DNA from: a virus
Lineage: Duplodnaviria > Heunggongvirae > Uroviricota > Caudoviricetes
Virus record (IMG/VR): IMGVR_UViG_2563366819_000003
Location: 1-55,732 of that record
Length of the DNA: 55,732 bases
Reading direction: 5' to 3' (one strand)
Shown: positions 22,910 to 23,787 of the stretch, piece by piece
Layout: each line of letters begins with the position of its first letter
How positions within the stretch are numbered: position 1 is the first letter of the stretch
Translations under genes and position numbers: made by a program
Notes under the pieces: generated by a model
What the model was told of the DNA's origin: nothing
What the model saw: only the letters and a program-made list of their open reading frames with translations
Databases searched by the model: none

Positions 22910-23787
22910 AAATGTCCACCATTCCCACCCTTCTGGGGCCGGACGGCATGACATCGCTGCGTGAATATGCCGGTTATCACGGCGGTGGCAGCGGATTTGG
23001 TGGGCAGTTGCGGGCGTGGAACCCACCGAGTGAAAGTGTGGATGCAGCCCTGCTGCCCAACTTTACCCGTGGCAATGCCCGCGCAGACGATCTGGTACGC
23101 AATAACGGCTATGCCGCCAACGCCATCCAGCTGCATCAGGATCATATCGTCGGGTCTTTTTTCCGGCTCAGTCATCGCCCAAGCTGGCGCTATCTGGGCA
23201 TCGGGGAGGAAGAAGCCCGTGCCTTTTCCCGCGAGGTTGAAGCGGCATGGAAAGAGTTTGCCGAGGATGACTGCTGCTGCATTGACGTTGAGCGAAAACG
23301 CACGTTTACCATGATGATTCGGGAAGGTGTGGCCATGCACGCCTTTAACGGTGAACTGTTCGTTCAGGCCACCTGGGATACCAGTTCGTCGCGGCTTTTC
23401 CGGACACAGTTCCGGATGGTCAGCCCGAAGCGCATCAGCAACCCGAACAATACCGGCGACAGCCGGAACTGCCGTGCCGGTGTGCAGATTAATGACAGCG
23501 GTGCGGCGCTGGGATATTACGTCAGCGAGGACGGGTATCCTGGCTGGATGCCGCAGAAATGGACATGGATACCCCGTGAGTTACCCGGCGGGCGCGCCTC
23601 GTTCATTCACGTTTTTGAACCCGTGGAGGACGGGCAGACTCGCGGTGCAAATGTGTTTTACAGCGTGATGGAGCAGATGAAGATGCTCGACACGCTGCAG
23701 AACACGCAGCTGCAGAGCGCCATTGTGAAGGCGATTTATGTCTATCATCTCACCGTAGTTGCCCGCATCGTTCGCCAACTCCACTGA
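22906..23787 (+). pseudogene. B: Portal protein B, N-terminal fragment (about 276 aa of B, then 17 codons of read-through into the inserted element)
   Basis: Matches lambda B up to ...LQNTQLQSAIVKA (about nt 23735), then diverges (IYVYHLTVVARIVRQLH*); remainder of B found at 34631..35404. Confidence 0.9.

Follow-up and report, generated by a model that had tools for sequence, protein, structure and literature searches.

A satellite element, very probably a helper-embedded PICI, splits the portal gene B of a lambda-like prophage at argU

The stretch of DNA that we analysed (hereafter the window) comprises the 55,732 nucleotides of IMG/VR virus record IMGVR_UViG_2563366819_000003, a member of the Caudoviricetes. 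It starts with intD beside a tRNA-Arg gene (argU, the DLP12 site) and ends at appY, and thus covers a whole lambdoid prophage. The genes of this prophage follow the order int, exo/bet, repressor, O/P-like genes, Q, lysis genes, Nu1, A, W, B, C, D, E, tail genes, J and tail fibres, with B present as two separate parts between W and C and an inserted element between them. Upstream of Nu1 (20261–20806), the plus strand carries the exact lambda cohesive-end sequence, cosN GGGCGGCGACCT, at 20072–20083. Two cargo genes were found in the prophage: one for an inverse autotransporter of 1302 aa after the replication genes (9879–13787), and one for an OmpC-family porin after Q, on the minus strand (16149–17231). 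The same argU prophage is present in E. coli AST217 (NZ_AP043630.1, 603000–652900), where the first 18 kb are 100% identical save for an IS21 insertion. In that strain, the holin gene is followed by an IS3 element, and the late region is absent in its entirety, including B and any satellite.

The 5' part of the portal gene B (codons 1–276, plus strand, 22906–23735) was assigned by identity to lambda B: over the tested stretch, 23300–23735, the two are identical at 436 of 436 positions, and this flank is also 100% identical to many lambda relatives. Its open frame continues into the element and meets a stop 17 codons in, at 23787. The 3' part (codons 277–533, plus strand, 34633–35404) starts with the third base (G) of codon Met277, the first two bases (AT) of which close an 8-bp block. 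This block, AAGGCGAT, is present as a direct repeat on the plus strand at both ends of the insert, at 23728–23735 on the left (attL) and at 34625–34632 on the right (attR). The left junction reads gtgAAGGCGATttatgtc from 23725 and the right junction reads cataAAGGCGATgtatgcc from 34621, within the wider contexts ccattgtgAAGGCGATttatgtctatc and ttttcataAAGGCGATgtatgccgcc, respectively. In the uninterrupted lambda gene (J02459), the sequence is ATTGTGAAGGCGATGTATGCCGCC and the block begins, with its first A, at position 3658; the right flank resumes lambda B at the very next base after the block.

The in silico removal of 23736–34632, joining 22906–23735 to 34633–35404, gives a B gene of 1602 nt and 533 codons with no frameshift. 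This rebuilt gene differs from lambda B by 10 nucleotides, and its 533-aa product by three residues, all N-terminal; it matches the Pfam profile Phage_portal_2 over residues 32–400 (profile positions 2–354). The sequence-only reading had proposed that a direct repeat bounds the insertion and that excision would restore B in frame. Both points were borne out, as the two copies of the repeat are where they were expected, the DNA outside them is lambda gene B, and the joined flanks are in frame. Taken by itself, the 8-mer is no rarity (5 copies observed in the window versus 2.2 expected), and the weight of the junction evidence comes from flanks that continue one uninterrupted B gene base for base. 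The element contains neither a replacement for the 3' part of B nor a portal homologue, and the portal gene is therefore split until excision.

The junctions are alike over more than the block itself: 15 bp can be aligned between them, with 2 mismatches (AAGGCGAT[T/G]TATG[T/C]C). At both junctions, the bases that flank the 8-bp block are of the element type on one side and of the phage type on the other, which places the crossover inside AAGGCGAT. Read from these bases, the junctions show an attP core, CATAAAGGCGATTTATG, that the integrase recombined with the phage sequence GTGAAGGCGATGTATG, strand exchange falling inside AAGGCGAT. The predicted products of excision are an attB junction GTGAAGGCGATGTATGCC and an attP junction CATAAAGGCGATTTATGTC.

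The genes of the 10.9-kb insert are almost all on the plus strand, in the same orientation as the late operon of the helper prophage. An adjacent tyrosine integrase had been proposed as the agent of a site-specific integration, and the gene content agrees with this. Indeed, a gene for a 413-aa integrase (Pfam Arm-DNA-bind_3, Phage_int_M and Phage_integrase) lies 200 bp inside the left junction, at 23936–25177 (+), and is followed directly by a gene for an 85-aa excisionase/regulator of the AlpA family (25179–25436, +; Pfam Phage_AlpA, phrog_2790). A crude consensus scan of the plus strand gave no terminator-like site between the 5' part of B and the end of alpA; the first one is a terminator-like hairpin just after alpA, at 25449–25467. 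Next comes a 192-aa protein with a Bro-N domain, of the anti-repressor family according to profile matches (25493–26071, +). The only clear minus-strand gene of the element encodes a small protein of the YlcI/YnfO family (26405–26710; phrog_6522), which is also annotated in the copy of the element carried by strain APEC O2-211. Further small open reading frames include Icd-like and DUF4222 genes. A 356-aa open reading frame with a GTG start at 26028–27098 is probably no gene, as the APEC O2-211 annotation calls only its last 65 codons (26901–27098), as an Icd-like cell-division inhibitor.

A primase/helicase of 584 aa is encoded at 28003–29757 (+; D5_N, DUF5906, Pox_D5), and just downstream of it, at 29765–29994, iteron-like CCATCTACC(C/T) repeats are present in both orientations. 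These repeats are probably the replication origin of the satellite, since their location after pri agrees with the organisation of PICIs reported in PMC10111431. They are followed by genes for a single-strand DNA-binding protein, SSB (30352–30774, +; domain match), a homologue of the lambda major capsid protein E (30992–32032, +; 42% identical to the E of the helper), a homologue of the head decoration protein D (32042–32383, +; 38% identical to the D of the helper) and a second AlpA-family regulator of 127 aa (32395–32778, +; profile matches). The element also carries its own cosN GGGCGGCGACCT at 32835–32846 (+), with 62 of the surrounding 65 bp identical to the helper cos, and a gene for a Nu1-like small terminase subunit at 32980–33522 (+), 35% identical to the Nu1 of the helper. 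Comparison of open reading frames, profiles and the APEC O2-211 annotation gave no portal, protease/scaffold, large terminase, tail or lysis gene in the element. Rfam gave no match, either for the whole window at the gathering threshold or for the element at E ≤ 1, and PICI immunity RNAs were not detected in this way. The overall arrangement is that of a cos-type PICI and follows the zone order of Gram-negative PICIs, with int-alpA, a dynamic zone (Bro-N), pri/ori, and a late zone that contains late genes captured from phages.

Elements of this kind were defined as helper-embedded PICIs (HE-PICIs) by Tommasini, Mageeney and Williams (2023, NAR Genomics and Bioinformatics; PMC10111431), who mapped 491 of them to 14 sites in nine lambda-type late genes. 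One of these sites, B:Phage_portal_2:241, has the attL/attR identity block "aaggcgat", and the block of the window together with its flanks is identical to the attL/attR sequences in SuppFiles 1, 3 and 4 of that study. The concept, the site and the element itself were thus already published in 2023. Moreover, the APEC O2-211 element is tabulated there as Eco4623.11.B_Phage_portal_2_241 (CP006834.2/1830842-1841738); it has the same layout as the element of the window and is 99.9% identical to it (99.86%, 15 differences over 10,889 nt). The likeness to this group extends to the size of ~11 kb, the E. coli host, the doubled motif in the arms (see below) and the co-orientation with the late genes. 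We found no substantive difference; the window is another instance, whose helper is at argU, a site ("R") that also figures in PMC10111431. We therefore consider it very probable that 23736–34632 (one copy of AAGGCGAT plus the element) is an HE-PICI of the group B:Phage_portal_2:241, inserted in gene B of a lambda-like prophage at argU. The window adds one more instance and supporting population evidence.

A doubled TGTATTGC motif (tgTGTATTGCantgTGTATTGCa) was reported once per attP arm, 81 ± 2 nt upstream and 132 ± 2 nt downstream of the centre, and as unique to HE-PICIs (PMC10111431). A motif search found exactly two doubled motifs in the 55.7-kb window, with 0 expected by chance, and they lie one per attP arm: at 23866–23885 (+) in the right (P') arm and at 34531–34550 (+) in the left (P) arm. 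In the reconstructed attP, the downstream motif (23-nt form) starts 132.5 nt past the centre of the core. The upstream motif ends ~78 nt before the core centre, with its second half-site centred 81 nt before it; this upstream spacing (~78 nt) agrees with the published 81 ± 2 only if another reference point in the motif is taken. A fifth TGTATTGC half-site, additional to the published two doubled motifs, is present at 23908–23915, between the right-arm motif and the start of int.

The predicted attP junction was searched for in public data. There were 0 matches to CTTTTCATAAAGGCGATTTATGTCTATCATC in viral contigs and 0 matches to TTTCATAAAGGCGATTTATGTCTAT in metagenome contigs, and these public data thus held no excised circle or concatemer. 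The element-side junction AAGGCGATTTATGTCTAT gave 16 matches in species-representative genomes (Clostridia, Shewanella, cyanobacteria and others). By our own arithmetic, chance alone would produce ~9 matches to an 18-mer in 298 Gb, and we attribute these 16 to chance, as none had flanking similarity or the TGTATTGC motif.

The founding HE-PICI, Eco567.11capE of E. coli NRG857c, shares with the element of the window the order int, alpA, YlcI-like, Icd-like, DUF4222, primase, SSB, E-like, D-like and alpA2. Likewise, it is embedded in, and disrupts, a head gene of its helper. The integrases of the two elements are 54% identical over their full length in a pairwise comparison (E = 3e-170), and the B:241 integrases had been placed in the 11capE integrase clade (PMC10111431). 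However, 11capE targets the lambda-like gene E, with the block AACCCAAGCA, whereas the present element targets B. Moreover, 11capE has no small terminase gene (PMC10111431), unlike the element of the window with its Nu1-like one, and it has HEPN/DUF262 accessory genes where the latter is non-coding and rich in repeats. The element of the window is also similar to Gram-negative PICIs such as EcCICFT073, which have sizes of 10–20 kb, an int-alpA-pri layout, a frequent capsid homologue and cos packaging by lambdoid helpers. In contrast, classical PICIs reside in chromosomal genes away from the helper, act in trans only and do not have the doubled TGTATTGC motif (PMC10111431).

To assess how widespread this arrangement is, we examined complete E. 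coli genomes. The left arm of the element is present in 64 of 5426, and the same attL junction was found in 62 of these 64 carriers. Among the matches listed (60), all 60 copies lie under an annotation of truncated "phage portal protein", which is in keeping with the proposed site specificity. In 3213 of these E. coli genomes, the alignment of a B gene runs into and across the target, indicating, against 64 carriers, that the site is common and rarely occupied. Two genomes, NZ_CP166879.1 (E. coli strain 48, from deer) and NZ_CP053234.1, carry a left-arm variant that is 96.5% identical. Strain 48 has two left-arm copies in one chromosome, possibly corresponding to two helper-embedded satellites per cell.

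The target had been described as a conserved coding sequence of lambda-like phages. This is true of ~3200 E. coli genomes, which carry a B gene with the target intact, and of phage 21, whose B gene has the exact target despite a local identity of only ~80%, but conservation is not universal. In HK225 and in the Enterobacter phage MStein-2023a, a synonymous change in an Ala codon is found inside the block (GCG to GCC/GCT; AAGGCCAT and AAGGCTAT), and the target diverges further in relatives from Aeromonas and Vibrio.

The copies of the element are 98.8–99.9% identical across many unrelated strains. In the comparison with APEC O2-211, the two helpers are at different sites, argU in the window and ybhC in APEC O2-211 (according to the table in PMC10111431), and their early regions differ. 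Against the 99.86% identity of the elements, the adjoining late genes are only 96.6–98.7% identical, and the change is abrupt at both junctions. The presence of a near-identical element in two helpers with more divergent flanking late genes argues for recent independent site-specific insertion, which fits better than inheritance or the swapping of late-gene modules.

The best surviving alternative, which we nevertheless regard as very unlikely, is that the composite prophage is a defective fossil of a single past integration, the arrangement having been inherited or shuffled by recombination of late-gene modules, with no switching today. It would account for the appearance of many HE-PICI helpers, which look truncated, and for the failure to recover or detect virions for the model pair 11capE/50icd (PMC10111431). 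The loss of the whole late region in the close helper relative of AST217 and the lack of the attP junction in public viral and metagenome contigs also speak for it. However, the annotated genes of the element are intact and its copies are nearly identical among many unrelated strains. Moreover, the divergence of the element between the two helpers is ~10–20-fold below that of the adjacent late genes and changes sharply at the att sites, whereas a module swap would have brought the flanks along. Finally, the related 11capE excises precisely when induced (PMC10111431).

Far less credible still is the view that a transposase-type insertion created the 8-bp repeat as a target-site duplication. Such duplications commonly measure eight base pairs, and the 8-mer is not rare in the window. 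However, profile matches and the APEC O2-211 annotation revealed no transposase gene in the element, its sole recombinase being a tyrosine integrase with an arm-binding domain, and the listed copies all share one insertion point to the nucleotide. The likeness of the junctions past the repeat (15 bp with 2 mismatches) is what is expected of an attP core, and doubled arm motifs lie at fixed distances from this core. A small prophage or integrative island of the ordinary kind, using a phage gene as attB and independent of this helper, would be consistent with the capsid, decoration and small-terminase homologues that the element has of its own, and with its replication genes and cos. The chance of this is close to nil, given that an element devoid of portal, protease/scaffold, large terminase, tail and lysis genes could form no virions alone, that its cosN matches that of the helper and that its layout is that of a Gram-negative PICI.

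Taking the element as an HE-PICI, a course of events after induction can be proposed. Given the co-orientation of the element with the late operon and the result of our crude terminator scan, which was negative as far as the end of alpA, Q-antiterminated late transcription would read through Nu1, A, W and the 5' part of B straight into int-alpA. The integrase and AlpA would then excise the satellite late, by analogy with 11capE. [quoted passage not shown] A literature search for subsequent HE-PICI studies gave citations only, with no B-site experiment among them. As B would be rebuilt only on excision of the satellite, the production of the helper portal, and hence head assembly, would wait for this event. 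The excised satellite would replicate from its own primase and origin, and would be packaged at its own cos by the gpA of the helper, recruited via the Nu1-like subunit of the satellite. The helper-like cosN (62/65) and the presence in the element of a Nu1-like small terminase with no large subunit are the features on which this last step is modelled. From these considerations we infer that the element imposes a reversible inactivation on the portal gene of its helper, as the sequence-only reading had suggested.

The size of the genomes may add a further constraint. We estimate the composite at ~54–55 kb and the helper alone at ~43–44 kb. Under the packaging limits of lambda, only the restored helper should be packageable. 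The same issue of size was raised for the composite studied in PMC10111431. Three linked propositions can be drawn from this scheme: that int-alpA is driven only by the Q-dependent transcript of the helper, that the composite is unpackageable, which would make excision a checkpoint for both partners, and that portal genes altered in the core are escape variants. If int-alpA were driven only by the Q-dependent late transcript, the restoration of the portal would be obligatorily coupled to the release of the satellite. As regards the third proposition, the GCG to GCC/GCT changes in the core may be variants selected against satellite insertion. Taken jointly, these three propositions are tentative and we think them rather unlikely to hold together.

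An unexcised composite would contain two cosN in the same orientation, that of the helper (20072–20083) and that of the satellite (32835–32846), 12.8 kb apart. Cutting at both would give an undersized fragment of 12.8 kb, which may matter for packaging before excision.

The skin element of B. subtilis, located in sigK, is a regulated gene integrity element: it splits a gene, and its timed excision rebuilds that gene. This category of elements is cited in PMC10111431, and the present case resembles it in that an integrative element splits a coding gene and supplies no replacement end. It differs in that the split gene belongs here to another mobile element, and that the timing would serve the satellite and not the cell. 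A satellite inside the portal gene would tie the head assembly of the helper to satellite excision, and an embedded satellite would represent a cis-acting form of phage parasitism beyond the reach of PICIs that act in trans. There is also a consequence for annotation: a split portal gene is called a pseudogene, and a prophage may be scored as defective though it may be fully restorable.

The right arm of the element is poor in genes and contains three tandem units of 54 nt at 34064–34225. Each unit has a 13-bp palindrome at the same position and of differing sequence (CCTGCAATGCAGG, CCCCCATTGGGGG and CCTCAATTTGAGG), and a fourth similar palindrome lies at 33966–33984. An RNA fold z-score of only −1.6 was obtained. 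Pieces of 33816–34530 recur, unannotated, in ~1200 E. coli genomes.
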